Source: an uncultured virus (IMG/VR IMGVR_UViG_3300017989_000063) (taxonomy: Duplodnaviria; Heunggongvirae; Uroviricota; Caudoviricetes). Taken from it: a DNA stretch of 23,185 bases. The stretch lies in the IMG/VR virus record IMGVR_UViG_3300017989_000063. One strand, written 5' to 3'. Under the pieces are notes generated by a model. It was not told the origin of the DNA. It worked only from the letters and a program-made list of their open reading frames with translations, and did not search any database. This document shows, piece by piece, positions 8,939 through 20,555 of the stretch (the first letter of the stretch is position 1; each line of letters starts with the position of its first letter). The translations under genes and the position numbers were made by a program.

Positions 8939-8969
8939 GGGGCCCCGGGGGAGACCTCGGGGCCCCTTT
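8939..8969 (+). terminator. 12-bp GC hairpin with GAGA tetraloop and short U tail (weak terminator or mRNA stabiliser)
   Basis: GGGGCCCCGGGG-GAGA-CCTCGGGGCCCC-TTT, 14 nt after the stop at 8924 and directly before SD GAGGAG. Confidence 0.65.
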
Positions 8970-12258: not shown

Positions 12259-12615
12259 ATGGCTCACCATCCGATCATCAGCGTCCTGAAGACGGTCAGC
12301 GAGTTGAGGAAGCAAGGCAAGCTGACCGTGGACGAGGCGGCCGAGAGGATCTCCAGGGGGCTGATGCGCCCACCTCCACAACCAGAGGAGCCACAGCCAA
12401 GCGAGCCGGTCATGCCGGCGAGGCCGGAGCCCCTCTTCGAGCTGAGGTCTGGGACCATCAGGCGCATCCAGGCTCTGCGCCGGTCCAGCATCGAGCTCAC
12501 ACCGCAGGGGGTCAAGGGTAAAAATTGGGGGGCCGGCGCACGGCCGACCCCCCAGAGAACCTCGACGACTACTGCCCGCGCTCGAGCTCGACAGCTGCTG
12601 AGACGAGAGCAGTGA
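12259..12615 (+). CDS. Hypothetical protein, 118 aa, last gene of the + block
   Basis: ATG directly after the upstream TAG. The N-terminal two-thirds look coding. The C-terminal 30 aa or so run through the - strand terminator and are less convincing. Confidence 0.6.
   Translation: MAHHPIISVLKTVSELRKQGKLTVDEAAERISRGLMRPPPQPEEPQPSEPVMPARPEPLFELRSGTIRRIQALRRSSIELTPQGVKGKNWGAGARPTPQRTSTTTARARARQLLRREQ
12520..12554 (-). terminator. Rho-independent terminator of the - strand replication operon
   Basis: On -: TGGGGGGTCGGC-CGTGC-GCCGGCCCCCCA-ATTTTT. The 12-bp stem has a U.G pair that forms only on the - strand, followed by a U5 tract. Confidence 0.8.
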
Positions 12616-12796
12616 TGATGCGACCGCGAGACCAGTCGTCGCCCACGGGGACGCCGACGTAGCCCGCGGTCTCGATCAGCTCCTGGTCGTCCATCTCACG
12701 CAGCTCCTCGGCCGTGACCACGGTGTAGTCGCCTTCACGAGGGAGAACGGTGTCGGGGCGAGGCGGAAGCGGTCCCGCCTCGGCCCCCTCTAGTCG
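12569..12796 (-). CDS. 75-aa -1-frame extension of the 12790-13413 gene (or a separate 50-aa gene from GTG 12721); Rho-N/HeH-like
   Basis: Manual translation RLEGAEAGPLPPRPDTVLPREGDYTVVTAEELREMDDQELIETAGYVGVPVGDDWSRGRIITALVSAAVELERGQ*. Phage-like codon usage. Stops 14 nt before the terminator. Not in the ORF track. Confidence 0.7.
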   Translation of the reverse strand, partial: RLEGAEAGPLPPRPDTVLPREGDYTVVTAEELREMDDQELIETAGYVGVPVGDDWSRGRIITALVSAAVELERGQ

Positions 12797-12802
12797 TTTC
12801 CC
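12755..12802 (-). promoter_or_regulatory. Candidate -1 programmed ribosomal frameshift signal
   Basis: In-frame X_XXY_YYZ heptamer G_GGA_AAC (12802-12796), spacer GACTAGA, then a hairpin of about 14 bp GGGG(C)CGAGGCGGGA-CCGC-TTCCGCCTCGCCCC (12787-12755). Confidence 0.6.
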
Positions 12803-13413
12803 TCATCGCCCTCGTCCTCGGAGTCGGAGGCCTCGGCCAGGCTGACCGACATCTCCACGAACTGGGAGAACGGGGCCGGCTCCTCGGAGAGCAGGCAGTA
12901 GAGGTGGTACGCGCAGGCCTTGGACTCGGCCAGCTCGGACCCGAGCTGCTGGACCAGGGTCTGCGTCTCGGCCACGGCGGTGCCGATGCCGTCGACGCGG
13001 TTGACCAGGTCGCCGGTGGTGACCTGCAGCTCCTGGATGACCTCGGCCACGGCCGCCGCGGCCTCGTCCTCGCCGCCTGCCTCCTCGTCCTTCGGCTTGC
13101 CCTTGCCGGAGCCCTTACCCTTGCCACCGCCCTTGCCCTTGCCGTTGCCGCCGTCCTTCTTCTTCTTGGCGGCCGCGCGGGCGGCGGCCTTGTCCTTCTT
13201 GCTGGGCTCGGCCGCATCGCCGCCGCCCTCGCTGTCCTGCTTCTGCGCGATCCAGCCGGCGAGCCAGTCGATGGGGCGGATCATCGCCAGGTTGTGATCC
13301 AGCTTCAGCTTCAGGGCCATCTGCCGGATCTGGTGGTGCTTGAGGCTCGAGAGCAGCTCCTGCTGCTTGGCCTCCTGTGCCTCGGTCAGGTTGAGAGCCG
13401 GAACGCCTGCCAT
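12790..13413 (-). CDS. Hypothetical protein: helical N-domain, Lys/Gly-rich linker, coiled coil, acidic tail, 207 aa
   Basis: SD AAGGAG and very strong GC3 bias. KKKKDGGNGKGKGGGKGKGSGKGKPK linker; tail EASDSEDEGDEGND. Confidence 0.9.
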   Translation of the reverse strand: MAGVPALNLTEAQEAKQQELLSSLKHHQIRQMALKLKLDHNLAMIRPIDWLAGWIAQKQDSEGGGDAAEPSKKDKAAARAAAKKKKDGGNGKGKGGGKGKGSGKGKPKDEEAGGEDEAAAAVAEVIQELQVTTGDLVNRVDGIGTAVAETQTLVQQLGSELAESKACAYHLYCLLSEEPAPFSQFVEMSVSLAEASDSEDEGDEGND

Positions 13414-13426
13414 CTGTCTTCTCCTT

Positions 13427-13627
13427 CTACTTCTTCGTGGGCTTCGCCAGCACTTCCAACGCCAGCTTCAGGCCCACGAGGCCAATGAACTCTTCCTTCG
13501 CTTCCAGGTCGATCTCTTCGTCGGGAGAGTACCCTCCACAGTGAAACCCCATCAAGATCTTCTTTGGGGTTGTCTTCTTGCACTCGCGGCCTGCCCGCCT
13601 GCAGCTGAAGCACGACGGGAAGATCAC
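13427..13627 (-). CDS. Small Cys4 (zinc-finger-like) protein, 66 aa
   Basis: GTGA overlap with the upstream stop. MIFPSCFSCRRAGREC...FHC. Fills the operon gap. Confidence 0.6.
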   Translation of the reverse strand: MIFPSCFSCRRAGRECKKTTPKKILMGFHCGGYSPDEEIDLEAKEEFIGLVGLKLALEVLAKPTKK

Positions 13628-13938
13628 AGTAGCCGCGACCGGTTGTTCCTCACACACAGCATCACCACGACATCTGGACATTCTCCCTCCACGCACTGCC
13701 CGTCGCAGGCAAGCTGTGACCGGAAGTACTGGCTGTTCTCCTCCAGCCACGTCCGGTAGCGTCTCCGCCAGGTCATCGTATCGTCTTCGGGGATCTCTCC
13801 CTCCGCCTCCCCGAGGTAGTGGGCGATCAGGTCCTTGGTCGTCAGCCGCCGGCTCACCCGTACCCCCAGCTGCTGGCGGATCAGCTCCCGGATCTCGCTG
13901 TCGTTCATCCGGTCAAGGAGCTCCTGTAGCTGGTCCAT
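13624..13938 (-). CDS. Hypothetical protein: Rho-N/HeH-like N-terminus plus Cys4 C-terminus, 104 aa
   Basis: AGGAGG/AAGGA SD. ELLDRMNDSEIRELIRQQLGV...TTKDLIAHYL; CDGQCVEGEC...C. Confidence 0.75.
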   Translation of the reverse strand: MDQLQELLDRMNDSEIRELIRQQLGVRVSRRLTTKDLIAHYLGEAEGEIPEDDTMTWRRRYRTWLEENSQYFRSQLACDGQCVEGECPDVVVMLCVRNNRSRLL

Positions 13939-14173
13939 CCTTCTTCCTCCTGAACTTCAGCTTCACGTTCGAGTAGTCGCACCCCTTGCAGGCACGGTAC
14001 GGCTGACAGATGCACGAGGCTATCCCTACCTGGAATCGCCTCATGATGCCATGCCGGCAGCACTCCACGTACTTACCTACCTTCCTGGACAGAGCCTTCT
14101 TCTCCGCCTCCGACTGGGGGGACTCCGAAGTCTTCCGGGTCTTGCGCCGTGATCGTGATTTCCGTCCGGACAT
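13913..14173 (-). CDS. Small basic Cys-rich protein (start ATG 14173 or GTG 14068)
   Basis: CCRH...CICQPYRACKGC. Fills the gap between the RusA-like gene and the 104-aa gene. Start is uncertain. Confidence 0.5.
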   Translation of the reverse strand: MSGRKSRSRRKTRKTSESPQSEAEKKALSRKVGKYVECCRHGIMRRFQVGIASCICQPYRACKGCDYSNVKLKFRRKKDGPATGAP

Positions 14174-14588
14174 GGCCAGGGTCCATCTCCTTTCTGATCT
14201 CTCCCACGAAGAACATGGAGTCGTCGATGTCCAGCGCGGCCTTGAGCGCGTTCTCGATGATGATGACCCTGTTGGACGTGTCCACGATCTTGTAGCGGTG
14301 CTTGGCTCCGCCCTTCTCCCCCCAGGTCTTGTTGATGAGGGTGTCGAAGACGAACTTGTAGTCGATGCGGAAGACGGTGACGCCGTCGTCGGGCAGGTCG
14401 CACAGCTCCTGCAGGTAGCGGGAGACGATGTCCGTCTTGAAGCGGTCGACGAATGCCCGCACCTCATTGTTCATCACCTTGGCCAGCTTCACACCGCCCT
14501 TCCCCCTCCGCAGCCTTGGGATGTAGGCGCGGTTGATGGAGGGCGGGATGTAGCCGATCTCCAGCCTCACGGACCAGGGTTCATTCAT
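14073..14588 (-). CDS. RusA-like Holliday junction resolvase family protein (divergent active site)
   Basis: ATGA overlap with AGGAGG upstream. N-terminal PPSIN motif. DTSNRVIIIENALKAALDIDDS aligns to RusA DxDNxxKxxxDAL...DD. Confidence 0.7.
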   Translation of the reverse strand: MNEPWSVRLEIGYIPPSINRAYIPRLRRGKGGVKLAKVMNNEVRAFVDRFKTDIVSRYLQELCDLPDDGVTVFRIDYKFVFDTLINKTWGEKGGAKHRYKIVDTSNRVIIIENALKAALDIDDSMFFVGEIRKEMDPGHVRTEITITAQDPEDFGVPPVGGGEEGSVQEGR

Positions 14589-15172
14589 CGCCACCTACCT
14601 CCTGCCCGTCCTCGGCCTGCGCCGATGTTGCTGGAGCGGTTCCCGGCCCGGGTCTGGTCTCCGCGCAAGGTGATGATGCGGCTGACGGTGTCTCGGCTCT
14701 TCTGCTGGATCTTCACCGCGGTCTGGACCCACGCACGGAGCCGCTTCGCCTTGCGCCAGTTGGCGTTGGCCTCGACGAAGCGCCGGTCGATGCGCACGGA
14801 GTGGTCCTTCTCGGTCACAGACCCGGCAGTCTCCTTCCAGATCTTGGACTTCACGAAGTCCTTCTGCTCCTCGCGCACCTCGAGCTCGTCCTCGACGACG
14901 GTCTCGAGGCCCATCAGGTATTCCTGCCAGATGCAGAGGTTGGTGAAGAGCGTCCCCAGCGCCTCGTCCGAGAGTGACGAGAGGTTGGGCGGCAGCGGCA
15001 TCTGCTCGATGGGAGAGCCGTCGGCCTTGCACGGCCGCTGTGGGAGAGCGAGGCCCATCTCCTCGATCTTGGAGAGCACGTCGATGCCCGTTGCCGCGTA
15101 CATGTCGACGCCCTCGGCCATCGAGGCGTGACTTCCCTCCGGCTCTACTGGCTGTCCCTTTCCCCTAGCCAT
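14585..15172 (-). CDS. Helical protein, possible UvsY-like recombination mediator, 195 aa
   Basis: TGATG overlap with the upstream stop. Long helices around SVTEKDHSVRIDRRFVEA and KSRDTVSRIITLR. Lies in a RecA/SSB neighbourhood. Family call is an inference. Confidence 0.5.
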   Translation of the reverse strand: MARGKGQPVEPEGSHASMAEGVDMYAATGIDVLSKIEEMGLALPQRPCKADGSPIEQMPLPPNLSSLSDEALGTLFTNLCIWQEYLMGLETVVEDELEVREEQKDFVKSKIWKETAGSVTEKDHSVRIDRRFVEANANWRKAKRLRAWVQTAVKIQQKSRDTVSRIITLRGDQTRAGNRSSNIGAGRGRAGGRWR

Positions 15173-20525: not shown

Positions 20526-20555
20526 GGGGGCCCGGGACGCGTGCCCCGGGCCCCC
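20526..20555. promoter_or_regulatory. Perfect 11-bp GC inverted repeat between the SSB-like gene and the polA SD
   Basis: GGGGGCCCGGG-ACGCGTGC-CCCGGGCCCCC, with no U tract on either side. Confidence 0.65.

Follow-up and report, generated by a model that had tools for sequence, protein, structure and literature searches.

A candidate programmed -1 frameshift at the end of a phage replication-operon gene, and a conserved domain in its -1 frame

Introduction

Does the last-but-one gene of a phage replication operon end where its stop codon says, or do some ribosomes slip back by one base and go on to make a longer protein with an additional domain? The question is raised by a stretch of DNA of 23,185 nucleotides (nt) from an uncultured virus of the Caudoviricetes (IMG/VR record IMGVR_UViG_3300017989_000063), which at its full length is called the window here. 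On its minus strand, a gene for a protein of 207 amino acids (aa) is the second-to-last open reading frame (ORF) of a replication and recombination operon, and past its stop codon lies a small ORF in the -1 frame. The original prediction, made from the sequence of this DNA alone, held that a slippery heptamer and a hairpin join the two, yielding a short (207 aa) and a long (281 aa) isoform.

To our knowledge, tail-chaperone and capsid genes account for nearly all accepted frameshifts of tailed phages. Cases outside the tail genes of phages have already been recorded, for example in the list given with the PRFect preprint (PMC10274946). If real, heptamer-plus-hairpin -1 frameshifting at this locus would be of a known kind, and its interest would lie in a replication-module gene that gains a second helix-extended-helix (HeH)-type module. 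Here we find that the small ORF does hold a conserved domain, and we weigh programmed frameshifting, which we favour tentatively, against other ways in which this domain might be expressed.

Results

The end of the 207-aa gene

The 207-aa ORF ends GAT GAG GGA AAC GAC TAG, so that, as originally predicted, a G_GGA_AAC heptamer stands one codon before the stop (Table 1). From GGG AAA CGA onward the -1 frame stays open for 75 codons (12796-12572) and closes with a TAG (12571-12569) 14 nt before the operon terminator, which also agrees with the first reading of the locus. Because a -1-frame TGA lies directly 5' of the heptamer, fusion by a -1 shift is possible only within a zone of four codons, and the heptamer falls inside this sole usable zone. 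In-frame X_XXY_YYZ heptamers number 12 among the 7188 codons of the 23 candidate genes in the window, and Y is A or T in two of the 12, namely the heptamer at issue and a C_CCA_AAG in the ORF at 13427-13750. At two A/T-type heptamers per 7188 codons, one would be found in a four-codon fusion zone at roughly 1 in 1000 junctions by chance. That the -1 frame is open carries little evidential weight in itself, because 83% of 25-codon -1 windows inside genes are free of stops.

Past the heptamer, 8 unpaired nt (12795-12788), within the canonical spacing of 5-9 nt, lead to a hairpin with a minimum free energy of -27.8 kcal/mol (z -2.99), equalled by one of 200 shuffles. The original prediction of a GC hairpin of about 14 base pairs (bp), 7-8 nt past the heptamer, is matched by the fold, which has 14 bp after 8 nt. 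Folding of the window sequence by itself also predicts an outer helix that would embrace the heptamer region and is present in both the minimum free energy and the centroid folds. A search of 12400-13000 gave no Rfam family at E <= 1. The GAGG elements noted upstream of the heptamer are indeed present, although they are merely the GAG and GAC codons of the acidic tail.

That G_GGA_AAC is a known viral slippery site, as had been stated, is supported by published accounts: the g-t genes of a haloarchaeal virus are described as using it (PMC5009743), and GGGAAAC directly before a stop is given as the predicted tail-chaperone shift site of gp18/gp19 in Burkholderia phage KL1 (PMC3483164).

The 207-aa protein (P0001) is present on 4 contigs from three sources, the longest of 199,302 nt, and the stretch is found in 7 sequencing runs of 5 studies (sediment and seawater metagenomes), with no RNA run among the 7. 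Comparison of 4 runs reveals no indel or variant at the heptamer or hairpin, only identical fragments and low-complexity noise. A sequencing or assembly error is ruled out by the identical protein on 4 contigs and by the lack of indels in the runs. Transcriptional slippage is ruled out as well, the longest homopolymers at the site being G5 or A3.

Table 1. Features at and around the gene end, in the order in which the minus strand is read, followed by the one hairpin on the plus strand
Feature	Position in window	Strand	Remarks
Hairpin between 399-aa ORF and polA	20526..20555	-	
207-aa gene (P0001)	12790..13413	-	ORF with strong Shine-Dalgarno (SD) sequence AAGGAG
-1-frame TGA	12803..12805	-	abuts heptamer on 5' side
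Candidate slippery heptamer G_GGA_AAC	12796..12802	-	0-frame X_XXY_YYZ register; GGA and AAC are codons G205 and N206
Linker, 25 codons of -1 frame (RLEGAEAGPLPPRPDTVLPREGDYT)	12722..12796	-	without ATG, GTG or TTG
0-frame stop TAG	12790..12792	-	one codon (GAC) between heptamer and stop
GC-rich hairpin	12755..12787	-	14 bp, one bulge, 4-nt loop
Predicted outer-helix 3' strand	12737..12749	-	pairs with 12806-12795 (heptamer region); CU-rich, anti-SD-like
50-codon ORF from GTG 12721, with putative helix-extended-helix (Rho-N/SAP/LEM-like) domain	12569..12721 (including stop)	-	
Alternative start ATG	12692..12694	-	GAGGAG 9 nt upstream; used by public 41-aa gene call P0013
Operon terminator	12526..12554	-	12-bp GC stem, then T-run; 14 nt past -1 stop
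Hairpin between 618- and 726-aa ORFs	8939..8966	+	

A conserved domain in the -1 frame

A relative, P0010/P0011, is encoded on the IMG/VR contigs L001 and L002, which are identical over 12,792 nt and are treated as one (L002). Its gene order is that of the window, with RecA-like and Cas4-like genes, a homolog of the window's RusA-like 173-aa protein, small ORFs and then the homolog of the 207-aa protein, at ~30% protein identity. The homolog ends GAC CCT TCC TAG; four codons on, in the -1 frame relative to it, a domain begins, and a terminator and convergent genes follow. The L002 and window domains align without gaps over DYxxVxxxELRxM and onward, with 32% identity (alignment A3), and the domain is found once in the 201,921-nt record of L002. 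The downstream domain is real and conserved, and lies in the -1 frame in both phages. With a related copy in L002, the original claim that the -1 ORF hides a domain stands. A recent frameshift mutation is ruled out, given that L002 has an equal -1 arrangement at ~30% protein identity.

The last 50 codons of the -1 ORF look coding. Their GC content by codon position is 0.76/0.41/0.84, of coding type (0.70/0.42/0.95 in the 207-aa gene), and 8 of the 50 end in A or T, which is typical of the window (GC content of third codon positions in genes, 0.854). An Asp-Tyr pair common to the window and L002 lies at equal spacing 5' of the candidate GTG start of each domain. In the window, where the -1 frame offers no ATG, GTG or TTG before 12721, only ribosomes that come from the 207-aa gene can translate this pair.

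The AlphaFold model of the 75-residue -1 product begins with about 22 disordered residues (predicted local distance difference test, pLDDT, ~50 over 1-20), followed by helices at 29-34, 37-46 and 57-74, with pLDDT ~90 over 31-70. Its best structural match is 1a62_A (Rho residues 1-48), at Z 6.2 and a root mean square deviation of 2.4 A over 47 aligned residues, and SAP and LEM domains superpose on it at Z 4.4-5.1; for a helical unit as small as this, a Z below 8 is middling. Foldseek likewise places Rho chains in its top rows, at E ~2. Yet no hidden Markov model of Rho_N, SAP or HeH in Pfam matches the 75-aa or the 50-aa query at E <= 10, and PHROGs give no match for the downstream domain at E <= 0.01. 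The Rho-N/HeH-like domain of the original prediction survives as a fold-level lead and not as family membership; at that level, the model suggests a domain of the Rho-N/SAP/LEM helix-extended-helix type.

The 207-aa protein itself has no Pfam family, and its sole PHROG match is weak and to a family of unknown function (E = 0.0028). In its AlphaFold model (mean pLDDT 72), which was built on a 5-sequence alignment, a helical domain at the N-terminus (11-61) is followed by a disordered Lys/Gly-rich segment (64-114), a helix of about 60 residues (114-175), a further helix at 182-198 and a disordered acidic tail ending EGND. Foldseek with this model returns nothing significant; among the weak rows are the Rho N-terminal domain (rank 17, prob 0.35) and a DEK chain. 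As a lead, the model points to a Rho-N/SAP-like N-terminal domain. BLASTP detects no similarity between the N-terminal and the downstream domain.

Homologs and their C-termini

A HMMER search of 1.84 billion representative proteins (E <= 0.001) returned 9 proteins. Four of these (P0004, P0005, P0007 and P0009; 409-1322 aa) were set aside, as they match parts of the query in multiple short stretches (3-18). The other five are full-length homologs of 180-230 aa: P0002 (57% identity), P0003, P0008, P0006 and P0010. The C-termini of three carry the Gly-Asn of the window protein (...DEGND), namely P0002 (...ESGN), P0008 (...NGGN) and P0003 (...DEGNDD), and these tails, known as protein only from source contigs of 1059-2852 nt (ENA or JGI), otherwise vary in length and sequence. 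Shuffling the last 12 residues of each protein places GN this near the C-terminus in 4.5-9% of shuffles. The residue before the glycine is E, S, G or E and never D, the commonest residue of the tails; E, S and G each have a codon ending in G, so NNG GGA AAC could encode x-G-N. The x-G-N tails are the strongest independent hint, at the level of protein sequence, that the heptamer may be conserved.

P0006 and P0010, which have no GN tail, both end in Pro-Ser (...PS). At the CCT TCC TAG of L002 (6784-6795), re-pairing in the -1 frame would give CCC and UUC, with one G-U pair. The Pro-Ser end of L002 and P0006 may be a coincidence or a second, non-canonical shift site.

Further relatives were sought widely. 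GenBank phages gave no match by blastn (12400-13500), nor by tblastn with the 207-aa protein, the 75-aa extension, the 173-aa neighbour or P0003. A word-based protein search returned the window's own protein only, and no longer protein carrying the 75-aa extension. No locus was obtained from viral contigs with the window gene, the Cas4-like neighbour, alignment A1, P0002, P0003 or P0008, from metagenome contigs with A1 or P0011, or from genome contigs with A1 or A2. The relatives' loci came from viral contigs by way of P0011 and A2 and are L001 (= L002), L003/L004 (the same two contigs) and L005.

The 207-aa family may exist in forms with fused and with split N-terminal parts. In L002 (5974-6795; P0011, 264 aa) and in L005 (5568-6317, 249 aa) a Cys-rich protein (CxxC...C) and the homolog form one ORF, and the fused ORF of L002 contains an internal AAGGAGG followed by ATG. 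In the window the Cys-rich gene (13427-13750) and the 207-aa gene are separate, in different frames and 13 nt apart.

Genomic context and neighbouring features

PHROG and Pfam matches mark the minus strand between 23184 and 12569 as a phage module for replication and recombination. It encodes a DnaG-type primase, a family-A DNA polymerase with 3'-5' exonuclease, an HU-like protein, a RecA/UvsX-like recombinase, a Holliday-junction resolvase and a Cas4-like exonuclease, and then several small ORFs, the 207-aa gene and the small domain ORF. These neighbours bear out the original placing of the gene in a replication operon, away from the tail genes. On the plus strand, which converges on the shared terminator, lie holin- and spanin-like genes together with large ORFs that have no assignment. 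The window contains no tRNA genes.

Hairpins that start with GGGG and end with CCCC recur in the co-directional gaps of 57-68 nt and at the operon terminator, and in two cases the SD of the following gene comes right after the hairpin. Across the genome, such hairpins may form a class of elements that act in RNA stability, processing or attenuation.

The other A/T-type heptamer, C_CCA_AAG, lies in frame at codon 62 (13567 region) of the small Cys-rich ORF on the minus strand. The motif ranks among the most efficient -1 motifs in E. coli. Reading on in the -1 frame there would give just an Arg-rich ORF (13386-13613), which runs into the start of the 207-aa gene; the site looks like a chance occurrence and serves as a control. 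The Cys-rich ORF (107 aa) also overlaps a 104-aa ORF on the same strand (13624-13938) by 127 nt. Since its conserved part starts at about the stop of the 104-aa ORF, the true start of the gene at 13427-13750 probably lies there, in a coupled junction that overlaps this stop.

A 173-aa protein (14073-14594, minus strand) has no library match, and shares the motifs PPSxNxAY and SNRV with the proteins encoded at 4797-5327 in L002 and 4971-5375 in L005. These motifs resemble those of RusA-type resolvases and may reflect kinship with them; a RusA-type protein would be a second junction resolvase beside the PHROG-2002 one. The last plus-strand ORF (12259-12615, 118 aa) crosses the terminator hairpin and shares 47 nt with the 3' end of the domain ORF. 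Where it truly ends, or whether it is real, is uncertain, given an Arg-rich tail that does not look like coding sequence.

Discussion

How, then, would the conserved domain be made? The mechanism that we propose is programmed -1 ribosomal frameshifting. For most ribosomes on the 207-aa gene translation would end at TAG 12792-12790. A minority would stall with GGA and AAC in the P and A sites, held by the 14-bp hairpin 8 nt downstream, back up one base onto GGG AAA and continue with CGA for 75 codons in all. The resulting 281-aa isoform would consist of residues 1-206, a flexible Pro-rich linker of about 22 residues and the helix-extended-helix domain of about 50 residues, and slippage would be expected to yield a ...DEGNR junction peptide and LEGAEAGPLPPR. 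The long form, predicted to be a coiled coil, would then carry a module of nucleic-acid-binding type at both ends and the short form at one end, and the rate of shifting would fix the ratio of the two. Slippage itself, its rate and the function of the isoforms are what we infer from this layout. We hold that the two isoforms arise in this way with a confidence somewhat below an even chance; a rough bookkeeping of likelihoods places the reading anywhere from a quarter to seven tenths, and hinges on the low prior for non-tail frameshifts.

Several findings weigh against slippage, and most of them argue for two separate genes, with a stand-alone 50-aa HeH-like protein made from GTG 12721 by weak initiation or by re-initiation after TAG 12790, a usual intergenic stem between them, and a heptamer that arose by chance from an acidic Gly/Asn tail. 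The predicted fold begins at GTG 12721, the Rho match spanning model residues 27-74 and starting one residue past the GTG codon (V26). In each of the two phages a GTG lies no more than one codon from the domain boundary, and the one in L002 is just 14 nt past the stop, a distance suited to re-initiation. The phage-like codon usage ascribed to the whole -1 ORF holds for its last 50 codons and fails in the 25-codon linker, where 9 of 25 codons end in A or T against 14.6% in the genes of the window (binomial P = 0.0066), which is non-coding-like; constraints of RNA structure could account for part of these atypical third positions. Hairpins of 11-13 bp of the GGGG...CCCC kind stand in the two other co-directional gaps of ~60 nt, so a hairpin in the 68-nt gap is expected anyway. 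The end of the L002 gene has no canonical X_XXY_YYZ heptamer, the closest being C GGG GGT and C CCT TCC, and shuffles of its junction fold at least as well as the junction itself (z +0.97). The original prediction had counted homologs that lack the heptamer as evidence against itself, and L002 lacks it, though it represents the most distant homolog, with a different C-terminus, and is the sole homolog whose DNA was read. In L005, a lower-GC and more distant syntenic relative, the homolog is the last gene of the operon and the domain is absent behind it. At 180-230 aa, none of the five homologs is long enough for an in-frame fusion with the extension. Public gene calls make the domain an ORF of its own, P0013 (41 aa) and, in L002's phage, P0012 (57 aa), which are all that a word-based protein search with alignment A3 returned, and the nearest ESM-Atlas clusters are, as a lead only, small stand-alone viral proteins (scores <= 0.85). 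In E. coli, finally, A-site codons of mixed purine and pyrimidine such as AAC are reported to shift far less than AAG, and background shifting in this host is put at roughly 0.05% (PMC4066793). Yet two genes leave the heptamer a coincidence, and GTG 12721 would be a poor start: it is 68 nt from the stop, behind the hairpin, and has an SD duplex of -4.3 kcal/mol at a 10-nt spacing, the second-weakest of 24 starts, where gene starts mostly have -6 to -12. The domain starts of L002, the GTG or an ATG ATG, are no better served: their SD duplexes reach -3.2 and -2.2 kcal/mol, where all 4 other starts scored in L002 lie between -7.0 and -12.2. Two genes also leave unexplained the GN in the last residues of three of the five homologs and the conserved Asp-Tyr upstream of the GTGs. 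Thus the coincidence of the heptamer and the GN tails favour recoding, whereas the composition of the linker, the fold boundary at the GTG, the ordinary hairpin and the non-canonical L002 junction favour two genes, an arrangement that we consider quite possible, if less probable than frameshifting.

Two further routes are far less probable. A 41-aa protein from ATG 12694, as in the public call P0013, would have an SD duplex of -8.1 kcal/mol, mid-range among the genes of the window, and L002 has Met at the equivalent position. However, identity between the window and L002 is higher in the 12 residues before this Met (6/12) than in the 40 after it (11/40), so the upstream residues are coding and ATG 12694 cannot be the only start. 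The first helix of the model (29-34) also precedes the Met, and the ATG of L002 lacks an SD (-2.2 kcal/mol). We regard this route as very unlikely. Still more remote is ribosomal bypass, in which peptidyl-tRNA-Asp would leave GAC 12795-12793, slide over the hairpin and land on the in-frame GAC 12754-12752. The 38 nt skipped, from UAG 12792 to the hairpin end at 12755, would be built on the recurrent GGGG...CCCC palindrome. The layout is like that of T4 gene 60, in which matched codons flank a gap that starts with UAG and holds a stem-loop; here too the take-off and landing codons match, UAG follows directly on take-off and a hairpin lies between, and bypass would account for the non-coding look of the hairpin part of the linker. 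The gap is 50 nt in gene 60 and 38 nt here, where the hairpin excludes the take-off codon, no nascent-peptide signal is known and the layout is not kept in L002, which has the same frame problem without hairpin or matched codons. GAC is moreover common, a match by chance being roughly 5% (an estimate, not computed), and the process is extremely rare. The two mechanisms would differ in their peptides: the linker peptide RLEGAEAGPLPPR belongs to the slippage product, whereas bypass would join ...EGND to TVLPR. GC-rich 'byp' inserts of some yeast mitochondria sit inside expressed frames, and if bypass were true, the GGGG...CCCC palindromes could do so as well. What is left of the probability goes to no expression or to something else.

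How does the putative frameshift compare with known ones? Lambda G/GT uses the heptamer G_GGA_AAG and needs no hairpin for its shift, whereas the hairpin here is strong. In tail chaperones of the lambda G/GT type and in gp18/gp19 of KL1, as here, the heptamer lies near the stop of the short form and the long form has a C-terminal extension, and for KL1 the same GGGAAAC is predicted, placed directly before the stop (PMC3483164). Tail chaperones belong to the tail module, just upstream of the tape measure gene; the 207-aa gene lies beside RusA-like, Cas4-like, RecA-like and PolA genes, and its protein matches no chaperone family in PHROG or Pfam.

A replication gene with programmed frameshifting is found in E. 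coli, where dnaX has a heptamer, an upstream SD-like element and a downstream hairpin, and gives two isoforms in a fixed ratio that differ in their C-terminal domain. The 207-aa gene resembles it as a replication-associated gene with a heptamer, an SD-like element upstream and a hairpin, and in the isoforms that it would produce, differing at the C-terminus. The dnaX shift truncates the product, whereas the shift here would extend it. The dnaX heptamer is given as A_AAA_AAG (PMC5009743), and its A-site codon AAG is efficient in E. coli, whereas the AAC here is poor in that host. The two genes have no sequence relationship.

What would either outcome mean? Should the domain prove to be expressed in some other way than by frameshifting, the locus would be a calibration case, in which a perfect combination of heptamer, spacer and hairpin arises beside an intergenic stem-loop in a GC-rich phage. 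Should programmed -1 frameshifting hold, gene callers would systematically miss the long isoform and annotate its domain as an orphan ORF of 41-57 aa, and the shift site could be traced through the family by the protein tails, which have x-G-N before the stop. It would then be a rare non-structural case among tailed phages, in which uncultured phages of roughly 200 kb from sediment and seawater would set the ratio of one-ended to two-ended forms of a coiled-coil protein of DNA-binding type.

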